Shown one piece after another: positions 9,984-60,947 of a DNA stretch of 64,000 nt. Location of the stretch: the NCBI GenBank assembly GCA_949289995.1, contig CASEQE010000009.1, forward strand, positions 5,706-69,705. Direction: 5' to 3'. A program made the position numbers and the translations under genes. Position 1 is the first letter of the stretch, and each line of letters opens with the position of its first letter. This stretch comes from an uncultured Peptococcaceae bacterium (lineage in GTDB: Bacteria; Bacillota; Dehalobacteriia; UBA4068). The notes under the pieces were generated by a model. The model searched no databases. It was given only the letters and a program-made list of their open reading frames with translations, and was not told where the DNA came from.

Positions 9984-11789
9984 ATGCACGGATTGATTCC
10001 TCCGGAGATTATAGAAGAAATCATCGAACGTAACGATATTGTGGAGGTAATCGGCGAATACGTGCCCTTGAAAAAAAGAGGACGTAATTATTTTGGGCTA
10101 TGCCCATTTCATCAAGAAGATACGGAAAGTTTTGCCGTAAACCAAGAGAAACAATTCTTCAATTGTTTTGGCTGCGGCAAAGGCGGTAACGTCATTGGCT
10201 TTGTACGGGATATTGAAGGCATATCCTTCCCTGAGGCCGCTCGCAAATTGGCGGAAAGAGTCGGTATTCATATTCCAGAAAAAAACCTTTCCCCTGACGA
10301 AAGGCAAAAACTGGAATTGCGTCAACAAATGTTGAACGCCAACGAAGCGGCTAAAGATTTTTACCAACAATGCCTATGGTCTGCCGCTCATAATAGCGGA
10401 CAAGCATATTTACAAAAACGGGGACTCAGCCAAGAAATTAGCAAACGTTTTTCTCTGGGTTATGCTTCGGAAAACCATTGGCAAGCCCTATACGATCATC
10501 TAAAAATAAAATTTAATGAAAATATTTTAACGCAAGCGGGACTAATTAGCAAAAGCGCTAAAAATGGACGGTATTATGATAAATTTCATGGACGTTTGAT
10601 TTTTCCCATCCGTGATTATCAAGGCCGGGTAGTCGCTTTTGGCGGTCGGACCTTAACCGGAGATGCAGCAAAATATTTAAACTCCATGAACACGCCTTTG
10701 TTCAACAAATCCCAGGTACTATACGGGCTGGATGTAGCGGGCCAGGCCGTTCGTCAAAGCCGGCAAATTTTTATCATGGAAGGCTATATGGACGTAATCG
10801 CCGCTCATCAATTTGGTATAACCAATGCGGTGGCTACTTTGGGCACCGCATTTACCGAAGCCCATAGCCGTCTGCTTAAACGTTATGCCCCCGATCCACC
10901 GCAGAAACTCGTTGTGTATTTGGCTTTCGACGGCGATCAAGCCGGCGCAAAAGCTGCAGGCGGCGGTTTAAATAAATTGCGCAACTTGGATTATATCGAC
11001 GTACGAATCCTAGTATTACCCCCCGGACAGGATCCTGATGACTTCCTTCGCAGTCAAGGCCCAGAGGCATGGCATAATTTAGCCGCCGAACACGCTTACA
11101 CCATTTTGGATTACGTCTTGGAACAGGCTTTAAATCACCACGATATCAGCAATGCAAGCGGCAAAAGCAACCTGGTGGCAGAATTGTTGCCATCCATAGC
11201 CGCAACTACTAGCGATGTGGAACGGGATAGCTTTATTCGACGCTTAGCCCAAATTTTGCAAGTAGACGTAGAAAGTATTTATGCGGATTTGCGGCGTAGC
11301 GGTTTACAAATTAGCCGTCCTAGGCAACAAACCGTTCACCCGGCGGCTTGGAAAGAACCGGTAATTCATAAAGCTAGCTTTTTTCTTCTTCGTTTGGCAA
11401 TTGAAAATCCTGGCATATTTGCGGACGCCGCGCAAGACTTGGAGGAAGCTTTTGCCAACGTTCCCGAAGGACTTCAGCTCATTGGCCTGATCAAACAATT
11501 GGCTGAAGGATACGATTTTCACCCCGCTACATTATTCAACCATATCGACGCGAATAGTGAAGGGTTACGGAAGTTTTTGTTGAAATTATTACAAGCGGAT
11601 CTTCCACAGGGAGATTCAGAACAACTGGCCGCTGAAGCGATAAAGGGTATGAAACGCGCCTTACTAATGGATAAAAAGGAACGGCTGAAACAAGAATTAA
11701 ACGCCGCCTTGGCTGCAAAGCAAGACGTCAAAGATCTATTAGTTAAACAAATGGCGCTGGATAAACAGTTGGAAGATTTAAAGGGATAG
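9984..11789 (+). CDS. dnaG: DNA primase
   Basis: CHC2 zinc finger (CPFHQEDTESF...CFGCGKGGNVIGFV), then TOPRIM and a DnaB-binding C-terminus. The start was moved to ATG 9984, which has an upstream RBS, rather than 9954. Confidence 0.9.
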   Translation: MHGLIPPEIIEEIIERNDIVEVIGEYVPLKKRGRNYFGLCPFHQEDTESFAVNQEKQFFNCFGCGKGGNVIGFVRDIEGISFPEAARKLAERVGIHIPEKNLSPDERQKLELRQQMLNANEAAKDFYQQCLWSAAHNSGQAYLQKRGLSQEISKRFSLGYASENHWQALYDHLKIKFNENILTQAGLISKSAKNGRYYDKFHGRLIFPIRDYQGRVVAFGGRTLTGDAAKYLNSMNTPLFNKSQVLYGLDVAGQAVRQSRQIFIMEGYMDVIAAHQFGITNAVATLGTAFTEAHSRLLKRYAPDPPQKLVVYLAFDGDQAGAKAAGGGLNKLRNLDYIDVRILVLPPGQDPDDFLRSQGPEAWHNLAAEHAYTILDYVLEQALNHHDISNASGKSNLVAELLPSIAATTSDVERDSFIRRLAQILQVDVESIYADLRRSGLQISRPRQQTVHPAAWKEPVIHKASFFLLRLAIENPGIFADAAQDLEEAFANVPEGLQLIGLIKQLAEGYDFHPATLFNHIDANSEGLRKFLLKLLQADLPQGDSEQLAAEAIKGMKRALLMDKKERLKQELNAALAAKQDVKDLLVKQMALDKQLEDLKG

Positions 11790-11810
11790 AGCGAAAGCGA
11801 GGATTGACCA

Positions 11811-12908
11811 TTGGAACGCACCAAGGAGGAAATCGTTAAAAAGCTCATTGAAGGGGCCAAACCCAAAGGCTATATTTCTTATACGGAAATTATGGATGCC
11901 TTAAACGAGCTTGAATTAACGCCGGAACGAATTGACGAAATCTATGAACAATTGGCGCAAGCCGGTATTGAAATCGGCTCGGCCGATATTGTCATGGAAG
12001 CGCTAACCGACCCGGACGATACGGAAGTATTGCCCGTAGTGGAACCTTTAGAAATAGATTTGTCCGTACCGGAAGGCATAGCGATCGACGATCCGGTAAG
12101 AATGTACCTCAAAGAAATCGGCCGTGTACCTCTGCTAACCGCTGACGAAGAAGTACTATATGCCAAATTAATGGAAGAAGGCGACGAAGAGGCAAAACGC
12201 CGCCTGGCCGAAGCCAATTTACGCCTGGTGGTCAGTATCGCCAAACGCTATGTTGGCCGCGGTATGTTGTTTTTAGACCTGATTCAAGAGGGCAATCTGG
12301 GCTTGATCAAAGCCGTAGAAAAATTCGACTATCATAAAGGTTATAAATTTAGCACGTACGCCACTTGGTGGATTCGCCAAGCCATCACGAGAGCCATAGC
12401 CGATCAGGCTAGAACCATTCGTATCCCCGTCCATATGGTGGAAACCATCAATAAATTGATTCGTATCCAACGGCAACTGATACAAGAACTGGGGCGAGAT
12501 CCTACGCCGGAAGAAATCGCCGCAGAAATGGAAATTTCCGTGGAAAGAGTACGGGAAATCCTGAAAATTTCTCAGGAACCAGTTTCTTTGGAGACGCCGA
12601 TTGGCGAAGAAGAAGATAGCCACTTAGGGGATTTTATCGAAGATGAAGAAGCACTGGCTCCGGCAGAAGCCGCTTCATTTTTCCTTCTCAGAGAGCAATT
12701 GGAAGATGTTTTAGGCACGTTAACACCGAGAGAGAAAAAAGTATTGCAATTGCGCTTCGGTTTGGAAGATGGAAGAACCCGTACCTTAGAAGAAGTAGGG
12801 CAAGTATTTGGCGTCACCCGCGAAAGAATCCGTCAAATTGAAGCCAAAGCCCTGCGTAAACTGCGTCATCCCAGTCGTAGCAAAAAACTAAAAGACTATC
12901 TCGATTAA
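11811..12908 (+). CDS. sigA: Primary RNA polymerase sigma factor (sigma-70/SigA)
   Basis: Regions 1.2 through 4 are present ([79 protein letters not shown]). Apparent TTG start with RBS GCGAGGA. Confidence 0.9.
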
Positions 12909-13396: not shown

Positions 13397-14698
13397 ATGG
13401 GGGGAAAAATCAGCGGCGTTATGCCGCATAGCATTGCCGAAGAATTGGATCTACATTCTGGAGACATATTGCTGCAAATCAATGGCAAAACGGTAAAAGA
13501 TATTATCGACTACGACTTTTTAACCGCAGAAGAATATCTGGAATTAACCATTCAATTGGCAAACGGTGAAATAGTAGTTTTTGAGATTGAAAAAGACTAT
13601 GATGAACCGATAGGTTTGATTTTCGATTCCGACGTATTCGACGGTATTCGAACCTGCGCCAATCATTGCTTATTCTGTTTTATCGATCAATTACAGCCCA
13701 ACCCCCGTCCTTCTCTACTATTAAAAGATGACGATTACCGTATGTCGTTCCTGGAAGGAAATTTTATTACCGCCACCAACCTAAAAGAAGCAGACTTTCA
13801 ACGAATTCAAACTTTAAAACTCAGCCCGCTATATATATCTGTACATAGTACAGATCCTAAACTGCGACAAGAATTGCTGGGGTTCAAAAAAGATGCAGCT
13901 ATTTTACCTACGTTGCAACGACTAATCGACTATGGCTGCCGTATCCATTGCCAAATCGTCCTTTGTCCAGATATTAACGATGGGAACGCCCTAGAAAAGA
14001 CCATAAACGACTTAATCCCGCTTCATCCTGGGGTTGCTTCCGTAGCAGTGGTGCCGGTAGGCCTAACCCAGTATCAGACCAATCCCCGTCTGCGACTTTA
14101 TTCATCCCAGGAAGCAGGTAAAATTTTGACGCAAATCGAAACTATACAACGGCATTGCCGCGAAAAACTAGGCGATTGTTTTGTATTTGCCGCCGATGAA
14201 CTATATATCAAAGCCGGCCGGCCTTTTCCAGATGCCGACCATTATGGCGAATTTCCGCAACTGGAAAACGGCGTGGGGATGGCGGCTTTGTTTCAGAAAC
14301 AATGGTATGATTTATCCCACCGGCTTCCCCACAGCTTATCCTTGCAGCAAAAAACCGCCGTCGTAACCGGCATAAACGGAGCGGCAGTGCTACAGCCATT
14401 GCTGCAACCGTATCTATTGAAGCCGCAGAAAACAAATCTTTATTTACACACGGTAGAAAATCATTTTTATGGGCCGCAAACGACGGCTACCGGCTTACTG
14501 AGCGGATCTTGTTTGTTGCAGTCGATCCCTCCCGGTCAATATCAACGTTTATTATTGCCGGCAAATATGTTTAAATTTGACAGCCAGTTGTTTCTGGACG
14601 ATTTAACAGCCGCGCAAGTAGCCAACCGGCTTAACTGTCAAATCCAAATCATTGAACCCAACGCCGCCGCTTTAATCGCCGCCCTAAGCGGTAACTAG
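13397..14698 (+). CDS. PDZ-domain / radical-SAM-like DUF512 family protein
   Basis: N-terminal PDZ-like segment, then a CxxxCxxC motif (CANHCLFC) and the DUF512-type C-terminal region. Conserved position upstream of der. Confidence 0.55.
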   Translation: MGGKISGVMPHSIAEELDLHSGDILLQINGKTVKDIIDYDFLTAEEYLELTIQLANGEIVVFEIEKDYDEPIGLIFDSDVFDGIRTCANHCLFCFIDQLQPNPRPSLLLKDDDYRMSFLEGNFITATNLKEADFQRIQTLKLSPLYISVHSTDPKLRQELLGFKKDAAILPTLQRLIDYGCRIHCQIVLCPDINDGNALEKTINDLIPLHPGVASVAVVPVGLTQYQTNPRLRLYSSQEAGKILTQIETIQRHCREKLGDCFVFAADELYIKAGRPFPDADHYGEFPQLENGVGMAALFQKQWYDLSHRLPHSLSLQQKTAVVTGINGAAVLQPLLQPYLLKPQKTNLYLHTVENHFYGPQTTATGLLSGSCLLQSIPPGQYQRLLLPANMFKFDSQLFLDDLTAAQVANRLNCQIQIIEPNAAALIAALSGN

Positions 14699-19449: not shown

Positions 19450-21111
19450 TCAATTCATTAAATCAGCTGCTAAATACTCATCTATTCTCTGCAAAATCGC
19501 AGCTGTCTGCGCCCGGGTTGCCGTACCACGAGGCGCCACCGTTCCATCCGGCATACCGGTAAGCAAAGCTGCCTCGGTACAAAAGGCAATACCGGGCAAC
19601 GCCCATTCATCAATTGTAGCCGTATCGCTATATACCGCCAGTATGCCGAGATAATCCTCGCTGTGCAGTAAGGTCTGTCCTTGGCTGCGGTAATAATAAT
19701 CCATATAGGCAAAAATAATTTTTGCCATTTGTTGACGGCTTATCGCATCATTGGGACCAAAATTGCCGTTACCATAGCCGTCAATAATTCCCGTTGATAC
19801 GCCCCAAGCTACATATTTGGCGAAATAGTCATCTGCTTGCACATCCGCAAATAAATTACTCCTACCTGTTTCATCAATGACGCTGCCCCCAGCCTCATAC
19901 ATTCTTCCCAAAACGGTAATGAACATACCTCGGGTAACGCCCTGATCAGGGGCAAACAAATTGTTTCCTACGCCGGCAAAATATCCTTTTGCCGCCACAT
20001 ATTCGACTGACTCTTCAGCCCAATGCCCCGAAATATCGTTAAAAGCACTAGTTTGATTACCAAACATCAAGTAGGGCGTAATATTGACCGTCAACTGGCT
20101 ACCAATGGATGAACAGTCGATTTTATCTTCCGCTCCGTTGCCTTGACGAAAATATACATAACGACTCGTTTCAGGGATTTGGCAAAAATAATCCCAATTG
20201 ACAAATTTGTTCACCACACCGTCAATACTATAAGTATAGATTTGACTGGGATCACAAAATAACCAACCAATTTGCGGTAAGTAGAATTCCAGCCAAGTAT
20301 GGCGCAAACTATCGATTTGCAAACCGTTAGCAGTATCGGAAGATAAATTTACAATCTGATCCTCAGGTTGGAACAGATAACCGCTTTGAGCCCTCGCCGG
20401 TATCCCCGCCGCCCGCAACAAAGCCACCAGTAAATTTACATATCCTTCGCAATAGGCGGTACGACGGTTTAATACGGATTTGGCATCTTGGGGTAAATCG
20501 CTTTCTTGATAATACACCTGTAAATTAACGGCGGCAAATAGCATTTTGGCAATTAAATACGGGTTGGTTTCTTGGCCAATCACATTTTGCACATATTGGC
20601 TAATTTCCCAATCATCGCTTTGGCTATATTCATCCGGCAACAAATAATTGGACAAAAGCGCAATCTGATCGTAATCATAATTCGTCGCCGTATAATCGAT
20701 ATGGTAGCGCAAAGCCGAAGTACTCACTGCAAATTTCTGATAGAAAACCAATTGTTCCCCGGCCTCCAGCCGGTCTATATAATATATGGCGAAACGGCGC
20801 CCCTGATCGTCGCTAATAATGGAATCCGGATAAGGCGTTAATTGCTCGCGAATGAGGGTATAATACACGGGAACGCTATCGTCCATTAATGGAATGGACA
20901 ATACCACATTTCGGGCGGCTCCGTCCTGCTCATTGCTAACGGTTACTTCATGAACCAACGTATAACCCCATTGACCGGTAACCGTATAATAATTTTGCTG
21001 GTCTGTGCCGATACCGGCGTCATCCGCCGCCAATGTTGCTAGGGAACAACTGAACAGAAAAAGAAAACAACAGCAGAAACAAAAAAACCGTATTGCTAGT
21101 CTTTTCATCAT
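19450..21111 (-). CDS. Secreted transglutaminase-like cysteine protease-fold protein with three C-terminal SLH domains
   Basis: Signal peptide with a Cys-rich h-region (FFCFCCCFLFLFSCS). Transglutaminase-like core (AYCEGYVNLLVALLRAAGIPAR, then H and D downstream). Three SLH repeats (FNDISGHWAEESVEYVAAKGYF, FADVQADDYFAKYVAWGVSTGII, and a C-terminal repeat). Confidence 0.6.
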   Translation of the reverse strand: MMKRLAIRFFCFCCCFLFLFSCSLATLAADDAGIGTDQQNYYTVTGQWGYTLVHEVTVSNEQDGAARNVVLSIPLMDDSVPVYYTLIREQLTPYPDSIISDDQGRRFAIYYIDRLEAGEQLVFYQKFAVSTSALRYHIDYTATNYDYDQIALLSNYLLPDEYSQSDDWEISQYVQNVIGQETNPYLIAKMLFAAVNLQVYYQESDLPQDAKSVLNRRTAYCEGYVNLLVALLRAAGIPARAQSGYLFQPEDQIVNLSSDTANGLQIDSLRHTWLEFYLPQIGWLFCDPSQIYTYSIDGVVNKFVNWDYFCQIPETSRYVYFRQGNGAEDKIDCSSIGSQLTVNITPYLMFGNQTSAFNDISGHWAEESVEYVAAKGYFAGVGNNLFAPDQGVTRGMFITVLGRMYEAGGSVIDETGRSNLFADVQADDYFAKYVAWGVSTGIIDGYGNGNFGPNDAISRQQMAKIIFAYMDYYYRSQGQTLLHSEDYLGILAVYSDTATIDEWALPGIAFCTEAALLTGMPDGTVAPRGTATRAQTAAILQRIDEYLAADLMN

Positions 21112-27529: not shown

Positions 27530-27895
27530 TCTGCCGAGCAAGCCTATAAGCCGGGTTCTGTCGTGGATGAACATCTATCTAAGCATACCGTTGCCGGTAT
27601 GCTTTAGCGACCGCAACGAAAAGCAGACGGGCCGCCCTATGCTTTTCTATAAACCGCAATGGTTCAAGGGTCTTGCTCCGAATGGGGTTTACCTAGCCGC
27701 CTGGTCTCCCAAGCGCTGGTGCGCTCTTACCGCACCGTTCCACCCTTACCGGCAAACGCCGGCGGTTTGTTTCTGTGGCACTGTCCTTAAGGTCGCCCTC
27801 ACCGGCCGTTAGCCGGCATTCCGCCCTATGGAGCCCGGACTTTCCTCAAGCGCGCCCTTGCGGGTTACGCTTGCGTCCATCCAGCTTACTCGGAA
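27530..27895 (-). ncRNA. rnpB: RNase P RNA (rnpB), bacterial type A architecture
   Basis: The minus strand carries P4 GAGGAAAGTCCGGGCTCCATAGGGC, GGTAAGGGTGGAACGGTGCGGTAAGAGCGCACCAGC and the 3' ACAGAACCCGGCTTAT. A P1 helix pairs CCGAGTAAGCT with AGGCTTGCTCGG. Length is about 366 nt. Confidence 0.85.
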
Positions 27896-27944: not shown

Positions 27945-28682
27945 TTATTCGTTATCGGTAAATAAAGCCCTACCGCATTTCTCACAATACGTTCGCTGAC
28001 CAGATACTGTCCTTTTATATAAAACCGGGGTAACTATAGTATGACATCCATCGCAAACGTGCTCTGATGACAAATACGCCACCGGCGATCCGCCAAATTT
28101 GTGCTGATTGGCCTCAAACCAAGCTAACTCCCCTTTTTCAATAGAGGGAAGCAAAGCTGCAATTTCTGCTGCCACTTCTGCCTCTTTATGCGCATAGTCT
28201 TCGCATATTTCTTTATAATCTAATTTCAATCGCTCAAAAGATTGACATTCTTCTTCAATTTTTTGTTTTAAATCTACCGCCTCTTGTTCAATTTGCTGCA
28301 AGTGATGAATTGCTTCTTCATCTTGGGTCTTAAGAGCTTCCATTTTTTCTCCTAAGGCGGTCATTTGCGCCTCTCTGGCGGATAAGACCTTGACCGTAGA
28401 GGTGGAGCCATCATACATTGCATCCTGTTCTTTTTGCAATTTATGATTTACATCCGCCAACGATTCTGCATATTCTTTACGATTTTGCAATAATTCACCG
28501 CGCATACAAGCCAATTGCTGCCAACGACGTTTATCAGCTTCATATTCCGATTTGATCTTTGCCATTTGGCAATAAGTTTCACTATGAAGTTTTTCTTGTT
28601 CCAACAATTTTTGCGCGTTTTGTAATTTTTGCAATTGATGTAGCTGCTTCAACATAATACTCTCCCTGTCCTCATCTTCCAC
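27945..28682 (-). CDS. Coiled-coil protein with C-terminal C4 zinc-ribbon (DUF164/zf-RING_7 family)
   Basis: Long Q/E/K-rich coiled coil, then CDGCHTIV...YCEKCGR. Adjacent to trmK, as in the Bacillus yqfN/yqfO region. Confidence 0.6.
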   Translation of the reverse strand: MEDEDRESIMLKQLHQLQKLQNAQKLLEQEKLHSETYCQMAKIKSEYEADKRRWQQLACMRGELLQNRKEYAESLADVNHKLQKEQDAMYDGSTSTVKVLSAREAQMTALGEKMEALKTQDEEAIHHLQQIEQEAVDLKQKIEEECQSFERLKLDYKEICEDYAHKEAEVAAEIAALLPSIEKGELAWFEANQHKFGGSPVAYLSSEHVCDGCHTIVTPVLYKRTVSGQRTYCEKCGRALFTDNE

Positions 28683-29382
28683 AACGACATAAAACTTTAT
28701 CTATTTGAGCGATAGAATTCTGCAATTGCTGCAAACGTTGAGCCGCGTTTTCTCCCGGCATGGCCGAAACCTGCTCAATTAATGATAACAAATCCTTACG
28801 TTTTAGCTGCAAAAAATTGGCTAAAAAAGGATGGGATCCCGCTAAAAGACAGGGACCAAAAGTTAATTCGTCCTCATCCAAACACATTTCGCCATGCTCA
28901 GCGGCAATAACTTCATAGTAAAAACCGTTATCCAACGCCAGCTGCTCCGCCACAATCCGCCACCCGTTATCCATTAACCAGCGGCGCAAGGCAGCCGTAT
29001 TTTTTTGCGGCTGCAACACCAATCTCTTTGTTTGACTGATGACCAAGGGCTGGCGGGATAAGATGTCTTGGATTAAATAACCGCCCATACCGGCTATGGT
29101 TATCGTCTCCGCTTCCCCGGGTTGTAAAGGCGCCAAACCATCGCCTAAACGAACGTCGATTTGGCGGGAAAGCGAAAGCAAATCTACCAATTGGCAAGCG
29201 TTTTCATAAGGTCCAACAGCCCTATCCACTGCGACAACAAAAGGACATATGCCGTTGATCACCAGATAAACGGGCAAATAATTATGATCCGTTCCAATAT
29301 CTGCCGCCGTTTTTCCCGGTAAAACAAACTCGGCTACGGCGTGCAAGCGATTACTGAGTTTCACTTGCATCTTCTCGTTCAC
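28672..29382 (-). CDS. trmK: tRNA (adenine22-N1)-methyltransferase
   Basis: 236 aa with an N-terminal SAM-MTase motif (DIGTDHNYLPVYL). YqfN/TrmK family. Confidence 0.7.
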   Translation of the reverse strand: MNEKMQVKLSNRLHAVAEFVLPGKTAADIGTDHNYLPVYLVINGICPFVVAVDRAVGPYENACQLVDLLSLSRQIDVRLGDGLAPLQPGEAETITIAGMGGYLIQDILSRQPLVISQTKRLVLQPQKNTAALRRWLMDNGWRIVAEQLALDNGFYYEVIAAEHGEMCLDEDELTFGPCLLAGSHPFLANFLQLKRKDLLSLIEQVSAMPGENAAQRLQQLQNSIAQIDKVLCRCGR

Positions 29383-37381: not shown

Positions 37382-38486
37382 TTATACTTTAGGGGCAAAT
37401 TTTTGTAAATACGCTGCGATAAATCCATCCAAATCTCCATTCATAACCGCATCGGTATTGCCTACCTCATAACCGGTTCGATGATCTTTAACCAAACGAT
37501 AAGGTTGAAAAACATAAGAACGAATTTGGCTGCCCCAGCCTATCTCTTGTTGCTCGCCACGCAATTCATTCATTTGCGCTTCTCGTTCCCGCAGCTTTAG
37601 ATCCAATAATTTGGCCGCCAACAACTGCATGGCTCGATCTTTATTGGCGAACTGGGAGCGTTCATCCTGGCATTGCACCACGATCCCTGTGGGTAAATGG
37701 GTAATTCGAACTGCTGAATCGGTTTTATTCAAATGTTGCCCGCCTTTTCCGGAAGAACGATAGGTATCTATTCGCAAATCGTCGACATTGATCTCCACCT
37801 CATTATCATCCGCCACCTGTGGCAACACATCAACCGAAGCAAAAGAAGTATGACGTCGGCCAGCGGCATCATACGGAGAAATGCGCACCAACCTATGAAC
37901 ACCTCGCTCCGATTTCAAATACCCATAAGCATTTCTGCCGTTTACGGAAATGGTAACGCTTTTATAGCCTCCTTCATCTGCCGGTAAGCTATCAATAATT
38001 TCTACTTTATAACGATGATTCTCACAATACCGCGTATACATGCGCAGCAACATTTCTGTCCAATCCTGGGCCTCCAAACCGCCGGCGCCGGCATGCAGGG
38101 AAACAATGGCATTGTGACTGTCATATTCCCCGGACAAAAGCAGGGATAACTCCATGGCTGCCATTTCCTTGTTTACAGCGGTTAATTCTGCCGCTGCTTC
38201 TTTGGCTACACTTTCATCATTTTCTTCTGCAGCCAATTCATATAAGGTTGCGGCGTCACTAAAGTGGCGCTGCAAGCGTTGGTAGTCCTCTATCACATCC
38301 TTACGGCGATTAATTTGACTCAACAAGGCTTGGGCAGCTTGTCTGTCATCCCAAAAACCGGGCTCCAAAGTTTGTTTTTCCATCAAAGCCACGGCTTCCA
38401 TCTTTTGTTCCAGGTCAAAGAGACCCCCTTAACTGATTCAGTCTTTTTTCCCCTTCTTCCAGTAACGGTTTCAAATCTTCCAGCAT
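37382..38486 (-). CDS. prfB: Peptide chain release factor 2, produced by a programmed +1 frameshift
   Basis: ORF0 MLEDLKPLLEEGEKRLNQLRGSL ends at an in-frame TGA within CTT TGA C (plus strand gtcaaag, 38414-38420). The frame then shifts +1 into DLEQKMEAVALMEK... The SPF and GGQ motifs are present. An SD-like AGGGGG lies 3 nt upstream of the CTT codon (UCU spacer). Confidence 0.9.
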
Positions 38487-43908: not shown

Positions 43909-44592
43909 TTAAACTACGGTACCATGTTTTTTCTTTCTCCATGCATGGATGCTTCGATATACCAAATAGAGCAATAAAGAATTCAGACCCGCTTTCAATA
44001 AATTAAACGGTATCAAGCCAACCAAAAGCAACCCCTTCACCATCTGATAAGCGGTTACTGCCGCTTCTGAATAAGCGCCAGGTGTATAGCCTCCGCTTAG
44101 ACCGTCGATAAATATCCGGGCTGCTTCGCTTACGGAAACATCCATCATCACCTTGGGAGTAAATATAAAATTTAAGGGAATCATGATTAACGCCATGGAT
44201 ATGCTGCCACAAATTAAAGCAAGGATCATCCCCTTATTGGTTCTTTTGCAAGCGGCATAAATTGCATAGGCCACCAAAACCAAAGTACCGGAAGCAATCA
44301 TGTGCATCAAAAAGCCGATTGGTCCGTCGTGACCAAACAAAAACGCCTGGATAAAAGAGGCCACAGTTAAAACAATCATTCCCGGCCCCCAACCCATGGT
44401 AAAAGCGCACAACAGAATCGGTACATCCGCCATATCATATTTTAGGAAAGAAGCGGCAGGCACTAAGGGAAAACAAAGAAAGACCAATACCGAGGATACG
44501 GCAATCAACATTGCCATGCGTACCAGCTGCAAAGTGCTATCTTTTCCACCAATTGTTGCCGAATTCCGGCCTAAAAATTTTTGCTGCGACAT
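43909..44592 (-). CDS. ribU: ECF transporter S-component, riboflavin type (RibU-like)
   Basis: Polytopic small membrane protein immediately downstream of an FMN riboswitch. Start ATG 44592 after AAAGGAG. Confidence 0.7.
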   Translation of the reverse strand: MSQQKFLGRNSATIGGKDSTLQLVRMAMLIAVSSVLVFLCFPLVPAASFLKYDMADVPILLCAFTMGWGPGMIVLTVASFIQAFLFGHDGPIGFLMHMIASGTLVLVAYAIYAACKRTNKGMILALICGSISMALIMIPLNFIFTPKVMMDVSVSEAARIFIDGLSGGYTPGAYSEAAVTAYQMVKGLLLVGLIPFNLLKAGLNSLLLYLVYRSIHAWRKKKHGTVV

Positions 44593-44617
44593 ATGGATTT
44601 GCTCCTTTTCCGGCTGC

Positions 44618-44818
44618 TTCCAAAAAAACGCCCCATGCACATGCATGGGGCGGAGGCTAGCAATAACGCTACACTTCATCTTCTTTCATCCGGACTATAC
44701 CGTCGGCTCAGGAATCACACCTGATCAACGTTTGCCTACCATAGCGAAAACGCTCGCGGGCTAAGCGAATACGATCGCCTTACCGCCGGTGGGGACTTGC
44801 ACCCCGCCCCGAAGACAG
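44618..44818 (-). promoter_or_regulatory. FMN riboswitch (RFN element) with intrinsic-terminator expression platform
   Basis: Minus strand: CTTCGGGGCGGGGTGCAAGTCCCCACCGGCGGTAAGG ... GAGCCGACGGTATAGTCCGGATGAAAGAAGATGA. This aligns near base for base with the B. subtilis ribD RFN. It is followed by hairpin CCGCCCCATGCATGTGCATGGGGCG plus T7, then the ribU RBS. Confidence 0.9.
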
Positions 44819-44827
44819 CCTAATTGA

Positions 44828-55073: not shown

Positions 55074-56030
55074 TTGAAAATAAAAAAGAGATATATTTTT
55101 CTGCCGTGTACTGCCATTTTGCTCCTTTTTATGTGGATAAATAATACAAGCCTATTTTGCGATAGTTCAGGTGAATATAGCTTTTTGGCACATCGAGGTT
55201 TAGCACAAAACTTTGACGTTTCAGAAGTAGAATGGGATACCAACACCGCTGCAATTATAGATGAACCCCAACACCCCTATTTGGAAAACACATTGGAATC
55301 CATGGAAATCGCCTTTGCCTATAACGCGCAATGCGTAGAATTAGATATACAATTAACCAAAGATGGTTACCTGGCAATTTTTCATGATTATGATTTAAGT
55401 ATGAGAACGGATGGAAAAGGATCGGTTTCTGATTGGACAATGGAGGAACCAAAACGATTGGATGTAGGATATGGATATACTGCCGATGGAGGAGAAACAT
55501 ATCCATTTCGTGGTAAAGGCGTTGGAGTCATGCCAGAACTGCAGGAGGTATTAGATGCTTTTCCAGATAAAGAACTATTGATTCATATGAATCATGGAGA
55601 TGTGAAAACGGCAGAAGCGCTATGGACATATTTGCAAAATATGTCTGACGAACGTCTACAGCAAATTGCGGTTTACGGTAATGACGAAGGATTAGATTAT
55701 TTAAGAGAACAATATGCAAATATAAGAGTATTATCTGCCGAACGCCTAAAAAAGGCTTTATTAAAATATGAATTACTAGGGTGGACAGGATATATCCCAA
55801 ATGAAATTCAAAATATGGAAATTCATATTCCTATAAAATATGCAAAATTCCTATGGAGATGGCCCAAAAAATTCGTTGCAAGAATGGCGTCGGTAAATAC
55901 GAAAGTGGTTGTCGTAGAAGGCAACGGAAAATGGTCGGAAGGATTTGATACAAAAGAGTCTCTTGAGAACATACCGGAAGGTTATTCGGGATATGTATGG
56001 ACAAATAGAATAGACTTAGTTACAGAATAA
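55074..56030 (+). CDS. Glycerophosphodiester phosphodiesterase-family protein, probable lipoprotein/secreted
   Basis: GDPD motifs (HRGLAQN..ENTLESM, VELDIQLTKDGYLAIFHD). Proposed TTG start at 55074 after GGGAGA. The in-frame stretch from 54819 is intergenic and contains the pncB terminator. Confidence 0.55.
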   Translation: MKIKKRYIFLPCTAILLLFMWINNTSLFCDSSGEYSFLAHRGLAQNFDVSEVEWDTNTAAIIDEPQHPYLENTLESMEIAFAYNAQCVELDIQLTKDGYLAIFHDYDLSMRTDGKGSVSDWTMEEPKRLDVGYGYTADGGETYPFRGKGVGVMPELQEVLDAFPDKELLIHMNHGDVKTAEALWTYLQNMSDERLQQIAVYGNDEGLDYLREQYANIRVLSAERLKKALLKYELLGWTGYIPNEIQNMEIHIPIKYAKFLWRWPKKFVARMASVNTKVVVVEGNGKWSEGFDTKESLENIPEGYSGYVWTNRIDLVTE

Positions 56031-56290
56031 CATTTTTCAGCCTCTTCGGGGTTGAGTGGGACAGAAACTTATTAAGGAGAAACGAAAAGCATTTTACATA
56101 ACAAACCATTCGTTACAAACCATTCGTTGGCAAAAGAACTGTAAATGATTTTAAATTGTCAAACGCATTCCCGAATAGTTTTAACATTCGAAAATGCGCA
56201 AGGCGTCGTGAATCGTATGGAGATCTTCCGTCTGGCGATAAACAAAACCGCAAAAGCCCGAAACTTTTAACATCAGACCTTGCATGCGAA

Positions 56291-56337
56291 AAAAGAACCG
56301 CAGCTTTGATACTTTATGATCAAAACTGCGGTTCTTT
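56291..56337. terminator. Bidirectional rho-independent terminator, ending tRNA-Sec transcription on the minus strand
   Basis: AAGAACCGCAG-loop-CTGCGGTTCTT, flanked by an A-run on the 5' side and a T-run on the 3' side. Confidence 0.7.
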
Positions 56338-56434
56338 TGGCGGAAGCGTGTGGGAATCGAACCCACCCAAGACGGGCGTACCGCCTCGCGTCGGATTTGA
56401 AGTCCGCGTCAGCCACCAGGCCAAATCCGCCCCC
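56338..56434 (-). tRNA. selC: tRNA-Sec (selenocysteine tRNA, anticodon UCA) candidate
   Basis: 97 nt. The 3' end ACGCTTCC-G-CCA is identical in form to the E. coli selC 3' end. 5-bp T-stem with GGTTCGATTCC. Anticodon loop CTTCAAA. 6-bp D-stem with a 4-nt D-loop. Long variable arm. 8-nt acceptor with two G·U pairs and one G×A mismatch. selA lies directly upstream. Confidence 0.65.
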
Positions 56435-56527
56435 ATAAAATATCCTATATAGAAACAAGCGGTAAAATCCCCTATTTATCCCATATGAAAGCTTTTCCGC
56501 CGCATAAAATTATCGAGAATCAACCGT

Positions 56528-57916
56528 TCATTCCACAGTACCGCAAATATGCTGCAAGGAAGCGGCAAAATCCTCCATATCATGGGCGCTTAGCGTCCGT
56601 GGATCGACAATAATCCGTTCTTTACGAATATAAACGATCGCCGGCGGCTCGCCTAAACGCAAAGCTTCGGCCAAATCGGCAGCATGAAAACGATTATGTT
56701 TTAACGACAGAGCATAACCAGGCAAACGCACTTGCGGTAGACTACCCCCGCCAACCTCCGTCTGAATTTGTTCCTCTTCAATCGTCAAACCGCGACAATT
56801 TGCCAACATCTTTCGGAGAAGCGTACACTTTTGCTGCAACTGTGACAAATCCTCTCCCAGCATAGCCAGCAAAGGGATTTCCATACATCGCCCCTGGCGG
56901 TATAACTGTAAAGTAGCGCTCAATGCCGCCAGAGCGAGCTTATCCGGACGCAATATCCGATATAACGGATTTTCTTGAATCGTTTGCAGCCATGTTTTTT
57001 TGCCCAAAATAATACCAGCCTGAGGACCGCCTAATAGCTTATCGCCGCTGATGGTGATCACGTCCGCCGTATGAACCATCTGGCGCAGCAAAGGTTCCTG
57101 ATCCGCCAACCAAGACGCCGCCGGATATAGACAACCGCTGCCCAAATCGGCCAATACAGGCAGGCCGCATGACTCGGCCAAAGCTTTTAACGCCTGCAAA
57201 TCCACAGACTGCACAAATCCTACCTGTTGGAAATTGCTTTGATGTACCCACAACAACAACGCAGTACGCTCGGTAATTTGACGCTGATAATCCTCCACAT
57301 AGGTTTTATTGGTACAGCCCACTTCGCGCAAAATAGCGCCGCTGCGGCAAATAATATCAGGAAGACGAAACGAACCGCCGATTTCTACCATCTGGCTACG
57401 CGAAATAATTACCTCGCCACCGCAAGCCAAAGCGTTTAAAGCTAAAAATACGGCGGCAGCATTATTGTTCACCACACAAGCATCCTCTGCGCCGCTTAAA
57501 TCGCATAACAACTCGATAATTTCTTGTCCCCGCCGGCTGCGTTTACCATTGACCAAATCCAATTCCAAATTACAATAGCCGGAAGCGCATTCCCGTATCG
57601 CCTCCAATGCAGCCTGGGCTAAAGGGGCACGCCCTAAATTGGTATGCAAAGGCACGCCTGTGGCGTTTAACACTTTACGCAAAGGCGGAATGGTCTTTCG
57701 TTTATAGATCTGTTGCGCTTTTGCCACTGCCAACGCCAATAGCTGGGATGAATCCAATGCCTGTTCCTGGCCCTGCAATAAATCCTGGCGCAACGAAGCT
57801 ACCGCTTCCCGGCAAGCTTCGCTAAGCAAAGCCGGATTACAAGCGCTGCCCATTTTTTGCTGCACTTGCAGCATAGTCTTATCTACGCCGGGTAAATCTC
57901 GTAAATTCATACGCAT
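56528..57916 (-). CDS. selA: L-seryl-tRNA(Sec) selenium transferase
   Basis: Strong similarity to E. coli SelA motifs (LGRAPL, GAEDACVVNNNAAAV, VEIGGSFR, SGDKLLGGPQAGII with PLP-Lys, RPDK). The start may be the third codon (ATG 57910), which has a better RBS. Confidence 0.9.
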   Translation of the reverse strand: MRMNLRDLPGVDKTMLQVQQKMGSACNPALLSEACREAVASLRQDLLQGQEQALDSSQLLALAVAKAQQIYKRKTIPPLRKVLNATGVPLHTNLGRAPLAQAALEAIRECASGYCNLELDLVNGKRSRRGQEIIELLCDLSGAEDACVVNNNAAAVFLALNALACGGEVIISRSQMVEIGGSFRLPDIICRSGAILREVGCTNKTYVEDYQRQITERTALLLWVHQSNFQQVGFVQSVDLQALKALAESCGLPVLADLGSGCLYPAASWLADQEPLLRQMVHTADVITISGDKLLGGPQAGIILGKKTWLQTIQENPLYRILRPDKLALAALSATLQLYRQGRCMEIPLLAMLGEDLSQLQQKCTLLRKMLANCRGLTIEEEQIQTEVGGGSLPQVRLPGYALSLKHNRFHAADLAEALRLGEPPAIVYIRKERIIVDPRTLSAHDMEDFAASLQHICGTVE

Positions 57917-57958
57917 CCCTATACTTCGGTAATCATCTTACAATTGACCGACCTGCCG

Positions 57959-58357
57959 TTATACATCCTCTACCACGCCGTCTTGCAATTGTTGGTTTTG
58001 CGATCCTGCATAAGGATCCTCTCTTTCCATAGAGCGCCACAAGCGACCAAACAGATAGATTTCCGCCTGTAATACATTGGGATATGGATTCAGCACGACG
58101 CCTTTGCCATCGATAACCGTCACTTGTTCCGGATCGCTATCAGGACGAAAACGGCCGGACAAATGAATGGTATAGCCCATGCCTTGATAAGTTCCGCTAT
58201 TTTCATCTGCGCTTTCCTCAAGGGTTTGGGTAAAAATCGGCTTTTTATAATCCCGAAACACACGATTATAATCGTTAATCACTAAAGTACCCCAAGTGAT
58301 AACTGCTAAAAACAGTAATCCAACTACAGATAAAGCAACAATTTTTCCTTTTTTCAT
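57959..58357 (-). CDS. Hypothetical N-terminally membrane-anchored protein
   Basis: 132 aa with one N-terminal TM helix and RBS AAGGAGG. No recognised domain. Confidence 0.45.
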   Translation of the reverse strand: MKKGKIVALSVVGLLFLAVITWGTLVINDYNRVFRDYKKPIFTQTLEESADENSGTYQGMGYTIHLSGRFRPDSDPEQVTVIDGKGVVLNPYPNVLQAEIYLFGRLWRSMEREDPYAGSQNQQLQDGVVEDV

Positions 58358-58395: not shown

Positions 58396-59601
58396 TCATT
58401 CGCCGTCCGCAACTTTCGCGATATGTTTAACGGTTTTTTTACGGCAATACAAGCCAACGCAAATCAGCGACGTTAACGGTATGGTCAACAAAATGCCAAA
58501 GCTACCGGCCAAAGCCTGCAATATCGCTACTACGATCATTTCTAAATTTAGTAATTCCAATATATTATCGTTATAGGCCGCCATCAACAGCGTCAAACAT
58601 AAATCGCTGCCAATATAAGCCAACACCAAGGTATTGGCCATGGTTCCCATAATATCCCGACCAATATTCATGCCGGAAGCGATCAAAGCCTTGGGCGAAA
58701 TATCCGGAGAATTGTGTTTCAACTCGTTTAAAGCGGAAGCCAGATCCATCGCCACATCCATGATAGCGCCCATAGCGCCAATAATAATAGCGGCAAAGAC
58801 AATGCCATGTAAATCGATTGGATGATTCGGATCCAGCAATTGTAAATACAAAGTATCCTCATCAATCATGCCCGTCAACCGTAACACTTTATCCATAATG
58901 ACGGTGATAATACCGGCGGCCGCCACGCCGGCGAAGCAACCGGCGCCGGCAGCGAAGCTTTTTGCAGAAGCTCCGTTAATTAACAACATCGTGCTAATGA
59001 TAACATACACGCAAGTTACCACCGAGCCTAGATAAATGTTTTCTCCGTTCAGCACGGCAGGCACAAAAACCGAAAATACAGACAAGCAGGTAAATACTAA
59101 CGCAATAAGGGTGTGTAATCCTTTCCAGCGGCCAAAAAATAGCAAACATAAAGCAAATATCACCGCCAAAATGATCAAAGCGTCGCTACGCAAATACTCC
59201 AACATCGTCCACTCTGCATCAGAACTGCCATCGGCATTAGGCGAAATCAAGACTTTATCGCCGACGCTTACTTCTTCCAAAACCGGATAATATGTAGGAT
59301 CAACAATTTGGCAAGCGACAACTTCCGCTCCCTTATCTTCGCCGCTCAAGACCTGCGCTCGGAAATAAACGTATTTGATGGTTTGCACCGTATCAGAGCT
59401 GATAGGAATATCCGTGGATCGGCTGGCGACAATCGTTTCAACCTGCGCTTTTACCGTATTTTGGCTATATACCGACTGTCGCTCGCCCTCTTGATGCGCC
59501 CATAGGCTGCCGGCCCATATATATGCAATAGAAAAAATAATGGTTAAAACAAAAATCAACAAATTTTTTTTATTTAAAGGTTGTATATCTCTTTTTTTCA
59601 T
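58396..59601 (-). CDS. YibE/F family membrane protein
   Basis: N-terminal TM plus an extracytoplasmic domain, then a 6-7 TM YibE/F-like core. Start set at MKKRDIQ after GGGAG. Confidence 0.55.
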   Translation of the reverse strand: MKKRDIQPLNKKNLLIFVLTIIFSIAYIWAGSLWAHQEGERQSVYSQNTVKAQVETIVASRSTDIPISSDTVQTIKYVYFRAQVLSGEDKGAEVVACQIVDPTYYPVLEEVSVGDKVLISPNADGSSDAEWTMLEYLRSDALIILAVIFALCLLFFGRWKGLHTLIALVFTCLSVFSVFVPAVLNGENIYLGSVVTCVYVIISTMLLINGASAKSFAAGAGCFAGVAAAGIITVIMDKVLRLTGMIDEDTLYLQLLDPNHPIDLHGIVFAAIIIGAMGAIMDVAMDLASALNELKHNSPDISPKALIASGMNIGRDIMGTMANTLVLAYIGSDLCLTLLMAAYNDNILELLNLEMIVVAILQALAGSFGILLTIPLTSLICVGLYCRKKTVKHIAKVADGE

Positions 59602-59624
59602 CAAACTAGCTCCCGTAGATTTGT

Positions 59625-60824
59625 TCAATTTGGCTGATAATGTTTAGCCAACCCTCCTTCCCCGGTTTCTCGATATTTGCTAAACAAATCTCGACCGGTT
59701 TCATACATGGTTTTCACCACGGTATCAAAAGAAATTTTTCGTGCATAGGTAAGAAAATTGGCCAATGATAAAGCGTTGATAGCGCGCATAGCCGCCACGG
59801 CATTTCGTTCGATACAAGGAATTTGTACCAATCCGGCCACGGGATCGCAAGTTAACCCCAAATGGTGTTCCAAAGCTACTTCGGCGGCATATTCAATTTG
59901 ATCCCAATCCATATCGTGCAAAGCGGCTAAAGCCGCCGCCGCCATGGAACAAGCGCTGCCGATTTCCGCCTGACAACCACATTCCGCCCCGCTGATGGAA
60001 GCATTGGTCTTGATTATATTGCCGATCAATCCAGCCGTCGCCAAAGCGCGCAAAATATCTTGATCCGTAAACCCCCGTTTATCCTGCATATATAATAGTA
60101 CGGATGGCAATACGCCGCAGGAACCGCAGGTCGGCGCGGTAACAATTTGGCCGCCGCTAGCGTTTTCTTCCGCCGCAGCAAAGGCGTAGGCGCAAACCAT
60201 ACGACATTCCCTGGTTTCGCTGGTCTCATCCATGTGCTTTTGTTGATATAAAAAACGGGCTTTGCGCAATACATGCAAGCCGCCGGCCAATTCCCCTTCC
60301 GCCGACAAACCGGCATAAATCTCATTTTTCATCGCCAACCAAATATCGGCTAAAAACAGCCATATTTCCGGCCCCTCCATTTGCTCCACATATTGCCAAC
60401 ATGTCAAAGCTTTATCGTGACAATACTCTTTAAGCTCCGTAAAACGGCGATGGGGGTATACGTCTGCCGCCGTTTCCCGTTCTTCCCCTTGGATAAGGAT
60501 TTTTCCTCCACCCACGCTTTCCACACGACATGTGCCGCAAACCGTACCATTGGTCAACGCCAATAAATCCATGGTATTCGGGTGGGCTACGGGCGTATGG
60601 GTATCAAAAACGATTGCGCAATCCTTGGGAGCAAAAACCTTTTGAATCGCCTGATCGGTTAAATGTCCCCGTCCAGTTTTCGCCAAAGAGCCATATAGCA
60701 CCGCCTGAAAGGAATGGGCATGAGGAAAACGTTCTTTGAAAATGCGGGCTGCTTTTTCCGGCCCCATGGTATGGGAACTGGAAGGTCCTCTGCCAATACG
60801 ATACAGTTCTCTTAGGGATTCCAT
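59625..60824 (-). CDS. sdaA: L-serine dehydratase, Fe-S dependent, single-chain (beta-alpha fused)
   Basis: N-terminal beta-type motif IGRGPSSSHTMGP and the alpha-type Cys cluster (PTCGSCG...ECGCQAEIGSACS). Start MESLREL after GGGAGG. Confidence 0.8.
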   Translation of the reverse strand: MESLRELYRIGRGPSSSHTMGPEKAARIFKERFPHAHSFQAVLYGSLAKTGRGHLTDQAIQKVFAPKDCAIVFDTHTPVAHPNTMDLLALTNGTVCGTCRVESVGGGKILIQGEERETAADVYPHRRFTELKEYCHDKALTCWQYVEQMEGPEIWLFLADIWLAMKNEIYAGLSAEGELAGGLHVLRKARFLYQQKHMDETSETRECRMVCAYAFAAAEENASGGQIVTAPTCGSCGVLPSVLLYMQDKRGFTDQDILRALATAGLIGNIIKTNASISGAECGCQAEIGSACSMAAAALAALHDMDWDQIEYAAEVALEHHLGLTCDPVAGLVQIPCIERNAVAAMRAINALSLANFLTYARKISFDTVVKTMYETGRDLFSKYRETGEGGLAKHYQPN

Positions 60825-60947
60825 GTTCCGCCTCCCAATCATTCTTTACCGCATCAACGCCATAGATATTATAACACAGAGGCGGCAAATTCAAAATCTT
60901 TTTCCTGCCATTCGTCTATTATTCAAAACAAAAAATTAATCAAGATT

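Follow-up and report, generated by a model that had tools for sequence, protein, structure and literature searches.

The gene pair considered here, selA followed at once by a selC gene for the selenocysteine (Sec) tRNA, lies on the minus strand of a 64,000-nucleotide stretch of DNA from an uncultured Peptococcaceae bacterium (assembly GCA_949289995.1, contig CASEQE010000009.1, positions 5,706 to 69,705 of the forward strand), which we call the window and to whose numbering all coordinates refer unless another locus is named. In all likelihood the pair is the selA-selC module of a working bacterial Sec system, the selB, selD and selenoprotein genes of which lie elsewhere on the chromosome, and this uncultured spore-forming lineage of the Bacillota very probably uses selenocysteine. 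An earlier reading of the letters alone (hereafter the sequence-only reading) had already named both genes, and the identification is borne out by ARAGORN, the Rfam family RF01852, the protein family TIGR00474, the Pfam family SelA and an alignment with the SelA of Aquifex aeolicus (3W1H). The same reading had taken the organism for a spore-former, in agreement with the genes for Spo0A, SpoIVB, SpoIIE, SpoIVA, SigF and CwlD that the window contains. The features that make up the module are the following.

56528..57916, minus strand: selA, L-seryl-tRNA(Sec) selenium transferase, an open reading frame (ORF) of 462 aa (TIGR00474, Pfam SelA, 3W1H alignment)
56435..56527, minus strand: selA-selC spacer, 93 nt, between the selA stop codon and the tRNA
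56338..56434, minus strand: selC, tRNA-Sec, UCA anticodon at 56398-56400 (ARAGORN and Rfam RF01852)
56285..56338, minus strand: intrinsic terminator, a 20-bp hairpin at 56291-56338 with a U-run (fold energy against shuffled sequences)

ARAGORN calls a 97-nt tRNA-SeC at 56338-56434 on the minus strand, with the anticodon tca at position 35, and the Sec-specific covariance model RF01852 accepts the fold end to end over 56342-56434, at 69.0 bits against a gathering score of 47 (E = 5e-12 in a search of the whole window), while the generic tRNA model of the same Rfam clan gave a weaker overlapping match that was dropped. Both programs and the coordinates agree with the earlier placement of a 97-nt UCA tRNA 93 nt downstream of selA on the same strand. 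The 3' terminus CTTCCGCCA, for which identity to selC had been claimed, is indeed common to this gene and to E. coli selC, the E. coli sequence used for the comparison matching the annotated tRNA-Sec genes of E. coli genomes at 100%.

The secondary structure used throughout is a hand-drawn fold, read from the window sequence, and it reproduces the architecture described before. Each strand of the acceptor stem contributes eight residues, which pair as G1-C93, G2-C92, G3·U91, G4·U90, G5-C89, C6-G88, G7-C87 and G8×A86, that is, seven standard or wobble pairs, two of them G·U, and a terminal G×A mismatch. It is joined by the linker A9 U10 to a D-stem of 6 bp (11-16 with 21-26) closed by the 4-nt loop UGGU. 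The UCA anticodon sits in the 7-nt loop CUUCAAA on a stem that runs as C27-G46 and G28-C45 and then, past A44, from C29-G43 through A32-U40, and that reaches 6 bp solely when A44 is bulged. There follow a variable arm with an 8-bp stem (47-54 with 60-67) and a 5-nt loop, a T-stem of 5 bp (69-73 with 81-85), and the discriminator G94 (G73) ahead of an encoded CCA. The tRNA has the 13-layer (8 + 5) acceptor/T branch of bacterial tRNA-Sec, with G×A as the eighth pair, together with the D-stem of 6 bp and 4-nt loop, the long variable arm and the discriminator G73 of that family.

The irregular stems had been flagged as unusual, and here the comparison with relatives is instructive. Relatives were gathered with SelA as the query, and the close lineages among them are three only: locus L034, which is the same species from another sample (98.4% DNA identity to the window); L001, the closest relative, on contig JAILCQ010000002.1 of the metagenome-assembled genome (MAG) GCA_024679955.1 of an uncultured member of the Bacillota, with 74% SelA identity; and L002, from an uncultured Peptococcaceae MAG, with 55% SelA identity. 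Beyond L002 the SelA proteins, for example that of L035, are 49-50% identical. selC is identical between the window and L034, and pair counts were made on an alignment of the four distinct tRNAs (window, L001, L002 and L035) laid on the hand-drawn structure. In this alignment 96.2% of cells fall in standard pairs; shifting the 3' partners by one to three columns lowers the figure to 39-53%. Each of the five helices contains one compensatory pair. The two outer pairs of the anticodon stem are supported because G28-C45 becomes A-U in L035; they need one bulged base, or two in L035. None of the four tRNAs has a standard eighth acceptor pair, this being G×A in three and G×G in L035.

Between the window and L001 the tRNA differs at six positions, and every one of these differences keeps or improves pairing or falls in a loop (G5-C89 becomes A5-U89; the others are of the kinds G·U to G-C and A-U to G·U, or lie in the T-loop). 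The tRNAs of L002 and L035, which belong to complete selA-selB-selC operons, also have a non-standard eighth pair and additional sequence bulged on the 3' side of the anticodon stem. Likewise, the RF01852 scores are alike, with 69.0 bits for the window, 67.5 for L001, 69.2 for L002, 64.4 for L035 and 66.5-73.9 for the selC genes of the proteobacterial loci L008 and L010 and of the Chitinivibrionales locus L007, such that the window gene falls inside the range of 64.4-73.9 bits spanned by selC genes from complete operons. Since these two flagged stem features are common to the relatives, including tRNAs that stand beside selB, they are conserved traits of the group; the G·U pairs, the G×A mismatch and the bulged A are real, as had been observed, and only their description as atypical does not hold. 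To judge from this comparison, the G×A eighth pair and the bulged anticodon-stem base are inherited by the lineage and do not represent damage.

The protein partner is equally well defined. SelA matches TIGR00474, an equivalog family, at 501.6 bits against a cutoff of 267.9 over profile positions 1-454 of 455, which secures the earlier observation that selA stands next to a tRNA-Sec, and it matches Pfam SelA (PF03841) at 420 bits. The database gene call for this protein (P0001) begins at the third codon and is therefore 460 aa long. Residues 5-457 align to residues 5-449 of 3W1H, the SGDKLLGGPQAG motif with the pyridoxal phosphate (PLP) lysine aligning to the same motif of that structure, and residues 5-75 align with its N-terminal domain. 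This domain is divergent in the window protein, because PF12390, the Pfam model for it, falls short of E = 0.01.

Between the window and L001, selA has accumulated about 1.5 synonymous substitutions per site (dS) and 0.17 non-synonymous ones (dN), a dN/dS of about 0.12, which together with the pairing-preserving changes in the tRNA supports the view that both genes have been kept under purifying selection since the two lineages diverged. Accelerated evolution of SelA after the loss of linkage to selB was looked for by comparison with 37 outgroup SelA proteins and with L002, in which selB still adjoins, and none was found: mean identity to the outgroups is 47.5% for the window and 48.7% for L002, and among 112 columns with conservation of at least 95% across the 37 other proteins the window keeps 104 and L002 keeps 103. 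As far as sequence can tell, the selA-selC module bears no sign of decay.

A separate observation concerns variation within the species. The window and L034 differ at 72 of 4545 positions, 54 of which are in selA (35 synonymous and 19 non-synonymous), mostly within its first 650 nt, where divergence is about 7%; the tract spans 57285-57940 of the window (the 5' part of selA), and the genes beside selA differ by 0.3-0.7% and the tRNA not at all. The pattern resembles either a tract imported by recombination or a mosaic of strains in the Logan assembly.

The claim that the tRNA ends in its own terminator is upheld by the 20-bp hairpin and U-run directly after the encoded CCA (dG -30.5 kcal/mol, z = -7.65, with none of 200 shuffles as stable). 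Since an A-run lies on the opposite flank of this hairpin, where a convergent GDPD-like gene ends at 56030, the hairpin could terminate that gene as well. By comparison, the spacer between selA and selC is no more structured than its shuffles (z = -0.53) and yielded no terminator-like site, and a scan of it for sigma-70 promoters gave nothing convincing. Its sequence is not conserved with L001, save for a short TATA-like stretch just ahead of the tRNA.

One question then is where the partners of this module reside. The absence of selB, selD and any selenoprotein gene from the 64 kb, which had been asserted before, is confirmed by several scans: NCBIfam searches of the 50 window ORFs of at least 150 aa found housekeeping and sporulation genes and no selB, selD or selenoprotein family; tblastn with the SelB of L002 found nothing in the window or at the L001 locus; tblastn with E. 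coli SelD, a distant query, found none in the window or at the loci of the clade; and no Rfam SECIS family (the selenocysteine insertion element) reached threshold in the window. The SelD probe did find selD in six other loci, proteobacterial or actinobacterial, and the SECIS search has a positive control in a SECIS_3 match of 81.8 bits at 4699-4757 of L010, about 5 kb upstream of an alphaproteobacterial selA, a position that fits the known fdhA-selA-selB-selC arrangement. A scan of the window for in-frame TGA codons between open frames gave five weak candidates, none convincing, which sit opposite known genes or beside short unannotated ORFs.

The relatives indicate that the Sec genes are dispersed, as the sequence-only reading had concluded in speaking of a machinery split across the genome. 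In L002 the order is a small ORF (described below), selA, selB and selC, and in L042 and L043 it is the small ORF, selA and selB up to the end of the contig; in the window, L034 and L001 it is the small ORF, selA and selC, with a 93-nt spacer free of coding remnants standing where an operon of the L002 type has about 1.9 kb. Because the neighbouring genes are common to the clade and the small ORF always precedes selA, the locus is ancestral: the ancestor had the order small ORF-selA-selB-selC, and selB departed from it before the window and L001 lineages split.

A search with the L002 SelB, combined with cluster look-ups, located a SelB (P0162/P0242) on contig JAILCQ010000037.1 of GCA_024679955.1, the same MAG that contains L001. 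The protein is complete, with the GTP_EFTU, D2 and beta-barrel domains and both winged-helix domains, and its contig has a tetranucleotide correlation of 0.978 with JAILCQ010000002.1. In this locus (L040) selB occupies 10001-12013 between a gene for an HI0933-like flavoprotein and a gene for a hybrid-cluster (Prismane) protein, followed by a cluster of tRNA genes for Val, Asp, Phe and Gly; neither selC nor selA is nearby. A second SelB, P0160, is encoded at 529-2436 of the 2.6-kb ENA contig L048. With P0162 it has 67% identity, every other SelB being at most 51% identical, and a gene fragment upstream of it matches the HI0933-like gene ahead of selB in L040 at 84% identity, so that after its departure selB would have come to lie beside this flavoprotein gene both in the L001 MAG and on L048. 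The GC content at third codon positions is 0.54 in the P0160 gene and 0.50 in the window selA, against 0.74 and 0.75 in selB and selA of the L001 MAG. P0160 is probably, though not provably, the SelB of the window species or of a near relative. When 78 SelB proteins were placed in a neighbour-joining tree, 100% of the bootstraps grouped P0162 with P0160 and only about 50% made this pair sister to the L002 SelB, a level that appears to favour neither a relocation of the ancestral selB nor its replacement by another.

Two further leads were discarded. P0201 was considered as the window SelB on account of the best local identity to the L002 SelB (54% over 55% of the query); the genome that encodes it is unrelated and has a selA-selB pair of its own. 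A metagenome scan with the anticodon-arm pattern GACGCGGACTTCAAATCCGNCG returned two matches (L032 and L033), which have no tRNA call and no selA homologue and resemble chance hits.

On this basis a mechanism can be proposed. The tRNA would either be transcribed as the last part of the operon of sda, yibE/F, the small ORF and selA or have a weak promoter to itself, its transcript being ended by the strong hairpin and trimmed to the encoded CCA. Seryl-tRNA synthetase, as is known for the family, would charge it with serine by recognising the long variable arm and the discriminator G. SelA would bind the 6-bp D-arm and the T-loop through its N-terminal domain and, with PLP and with selenophosphate supplied by SelD, would convert Ser-tRNA(Sec) to Sec-tRNA(Sec), an activity suggested by the domains and motifs observed in the protein. 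SelB, of the kind found in the relatives, would then deliver Sec-tRNA(Sec) to UGA codons followed by a SECIS hairpin. Expression, co-transcription and enzymatic activity are what we infer, and so is the assumption that this genome encodes SelB, SelD and selenoproteins.

Several points weigh against a working system with dispersed partners. In this genome, of which the 64-kb window on a source contig of about 70 kb is the part covered, neither selB nor selD nor a selenoprotein gene came to light; and no member of the clade yielded a selenoprotein gene or, at the loci examined with the E. coli SelD probe, a selD. In addition, the link between L048 and the window species rests on synteny and base composition only, and a MAG may hold mis-binned contigs, such that binning is no proof of a shared chromosome.

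A rival reading is that of a remnant of a decaying Sec trait, with selB, selD or both lost and selA and selC persisting as recent leftovers. selB is missing from the position that it holds in the relatives, none of the partner genes lies within the 64 kb, and Yersinia pestis CO92 offers a precedent, since it retains selA, selC and selD although its selB has become a pseudogene (PMC1273633). Nevertheless we consider decay unlikely. The order without selB must be old, because it is common to L001 at 74% SelA identity, and an intact SelB is encoded elsewhere in the MAG of that relative. Moreover, a dN/dS of about 0.12, the retention of the conserved SelA columns, a rate of SelA evolution no faster than in L002 and tRNA changes that preserve pairing all speak against it.

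Still less probable, in our estimation, is that SelA and the tRNA have been repurposed, SelA for a task outside Sec synthesis, as has been proposed for Helicobacter pylori, or the tRNA for decoding without SelB, for example by EF-Tu delivery. Such a change could be read into the lost genetic linkage of selA with selB, into the unusual divergence of the 5' half of selA between two samples of one species and into an eighth acceptor pair that is not Watson-Crick, an 8-bp acceptor stem being rejected by EF-Tu and recognised by SelB (PMC7609411). However, SelA proteins of organisms that do not use Sec lose the N-terminal tRNA-binding domain (PMC4607533), which the window protein retains. The tRNA, too, is still adjacent and conserved, its eighth-pair mismatch is found equally where selB adjoins (L002 and L035), and in the divergent selA tract synonymous differences outnumber non-synonymous ones about twofold (35 to 19).

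That the RNA is no tRNA-Sec at all, but a selC*-type tRNA-Cys opal suppressor or an allo-tRNA look-alike, is scarcely credible: selC* tRNA-Cys carries the identity base of cysteinyl-tRNA synthetase, the discriminator U73, where the window tRNA has a G, and the latter lies 93 nt downstream of selA, in the place that selC takes in the selA-selB-selC operons of relatives, and scores as well with RF01852 as bona fide selC genes do. Such look-alikes are known in Clostridia and resemble it in their long variable arm and lengthened acceptor and anticodon stems, the allo-tRNAs also in a long D-stem with a 4-nt loop, but their acceptor/T branch is a 12-bp one of 8/4 or 9/3, with or without a 51a bulge (PMC5389517), as opposed to 8 + 5 with a 5-bp T-stem here.

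The genes upstream of this selA-selC module, in order of increasing coordinate, are as follows.

57959..58357, minus strand: small ORF for a 132-aa protein with a membrane anchor and no known function, a probable member of the operon (context in relatives)
58396..59628, minus strand: YibE/F-like membrane protein gene (Pfam PF07907, 259.9 bits)
59625..60842, minus strand: L-serine ammonia-lyase (serine dehydratase) gene (TIGR00720, 375.6 bits against a cutoff of 345.1; Pfam SDH_alpha and SDH_beta)

The serine dehydratase and YibE/F-like genes overlap by 4 nt, and gaps of 38 and 42 nt precede the small ORF and selA, respectively. The four genes, with that for serine dehydratase as the first, apparently constitute an operon ending in selC. 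Serine dehydratase, YibE/F and LPG-synthase-like neighbours are common across the clade, and in L002 and L041-L044 a threonine-aldolase-like gene is inserted ahead of the small ORF.

The small ORF is directly upstream of selA in all ten contexts seen. Its homologues, of 117-136 aa, lie at 9578-9988 of L001, 1885-2250 of L002 and 2448-2846 of L034, and also in L041-L047; the proteins are 69-77% identical to each other (those of L001, L002 and L041-L047 included) and hence better conserved than SelA, and they make up only five clusters among 5.8 billion proteins. The window protein has an N-terminal membrane helix, a small beta domain and no cysteine, the AlphaFold model being of moderate confidence (predicted local distance difference test, pLDDT, 69). 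No Pfam or NCBIfam family matches it or ten of its remote relatives, of which there are about 98, none with a family, among 1.84 billion representatives. Where selB has been uncoupled from selA-selC, this clade-restricted protein is the constant partner of selA. That it assists selenocysteine synthesis as a new accessory factor, perhaps by delivering selenium at the membrane, as opposed to being a neighbour kept by shared ancestry, would be a long shot on present sequence and context.

Elsewhere in the window, prfB, the gene for release factor 2, which reads UGA, occupies 37382-38401 on the minus strand; its ORF enters the profile at position 24, and upstream of it, at 38414-38420, stands CTTTGAC, the classic programmed +1 frameshift site. 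A class A RNase P RNA (285 bits) lies at 27531-27892 on the minus strand in this spore-forming member of the Bacillota, and a flavin mononucleotide (FMN) riboswitch (116 bits) at 44674-44820 on the same strand stands ahead of a 256-aa ORF (43909-44679). The latter matches no NCBIfam family at E <= 1e-30, and the same holds for two adjacent ORFs of 245 and 236 aa at 27945-29382 (minus strand); a 553-aa ORF at 19450-21111 (minus strand) matches none at E <= 1e-25. A radical-SAM protein encoded at 13397-14698 on the plus strand falls below the cutoff of TIGR03279, a family of unknown function (400 bits against 575).

Overall, the locus adds little beyond a further gene order, selA-selC with a relocated selB, in a system that is known in several layouts. 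For annotation it carries a caution, namely that the tRNA-Sec genes of this group normally have a mismatch at the eighth acceptor pair and a bulge in the anticodon stem, neither of which should be taken for a sign of a pseudogene. The sole item of some potential at the locus is the small membrane protein that always precedes selA in the clade.

Among known systems, that of Escherichia coli consists of a selAB operon with selC and selD at separate loci. The present system resembles it in distributing the Sec machinery over several loci and, in the tRNA, in the 8/5 branch, the 6-bp D-stem with its 4-nt loop, the discriminator G and the CTTCCGCCA end. It differs in the partition of the genes, E. 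coli having selA with selB and selC alone whereas here selA goes with selC and selB is alone (as seen in the L001 MAG), and in the tRNA stems, which in E. coli comprise a fully paired 8-bp acceptor stem and an anticodon stem without a bulge, compared with the G×A eighth pair and bulged A44 of the window. Dispersed sel genes are in any case normal, selD being rarely found beside selAB (PMC1273633).

The bacterial selA-selB-selC operon (L002 and L035; PMC1794560, PMC5330540) agrees with the window in selA and selC, in strand and order, and in having the tRNA at the 3' end followed by a terminator, and the small upstream ORF and other neighbours are common to the window, L002 and L041-L046; the difference is that in the window no selB stands between selA and selC. 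A bulged nucleotide, 43a, in the anticodon stem has been described in a subset of bacterial tRNA-Sec, including those of Clostridiales, and the tRNAs that carry it have a 7/5 (12-bp) acceptor/T branch (Santesmasses et al. 2017, PMC5330540). The window tRNA has in common with this variant only the 43a bulge, by which the 3' side of the anticodon stem gains one unpaired base; it is an 8/5 tRNA with a G×A eighth pair, not a 7/5 one, because eight residues extend from A86 to C93. Finally, the orphan SelA of Helicobacter pylori resembles the window gene in having lost its linkage with selB, but that organism has no selB, selC or selD and its SelA is devoid of the N-terminal tRNA-binding domain (PMC4607533), whereas in the window selC is adjacent and the domain is kept.

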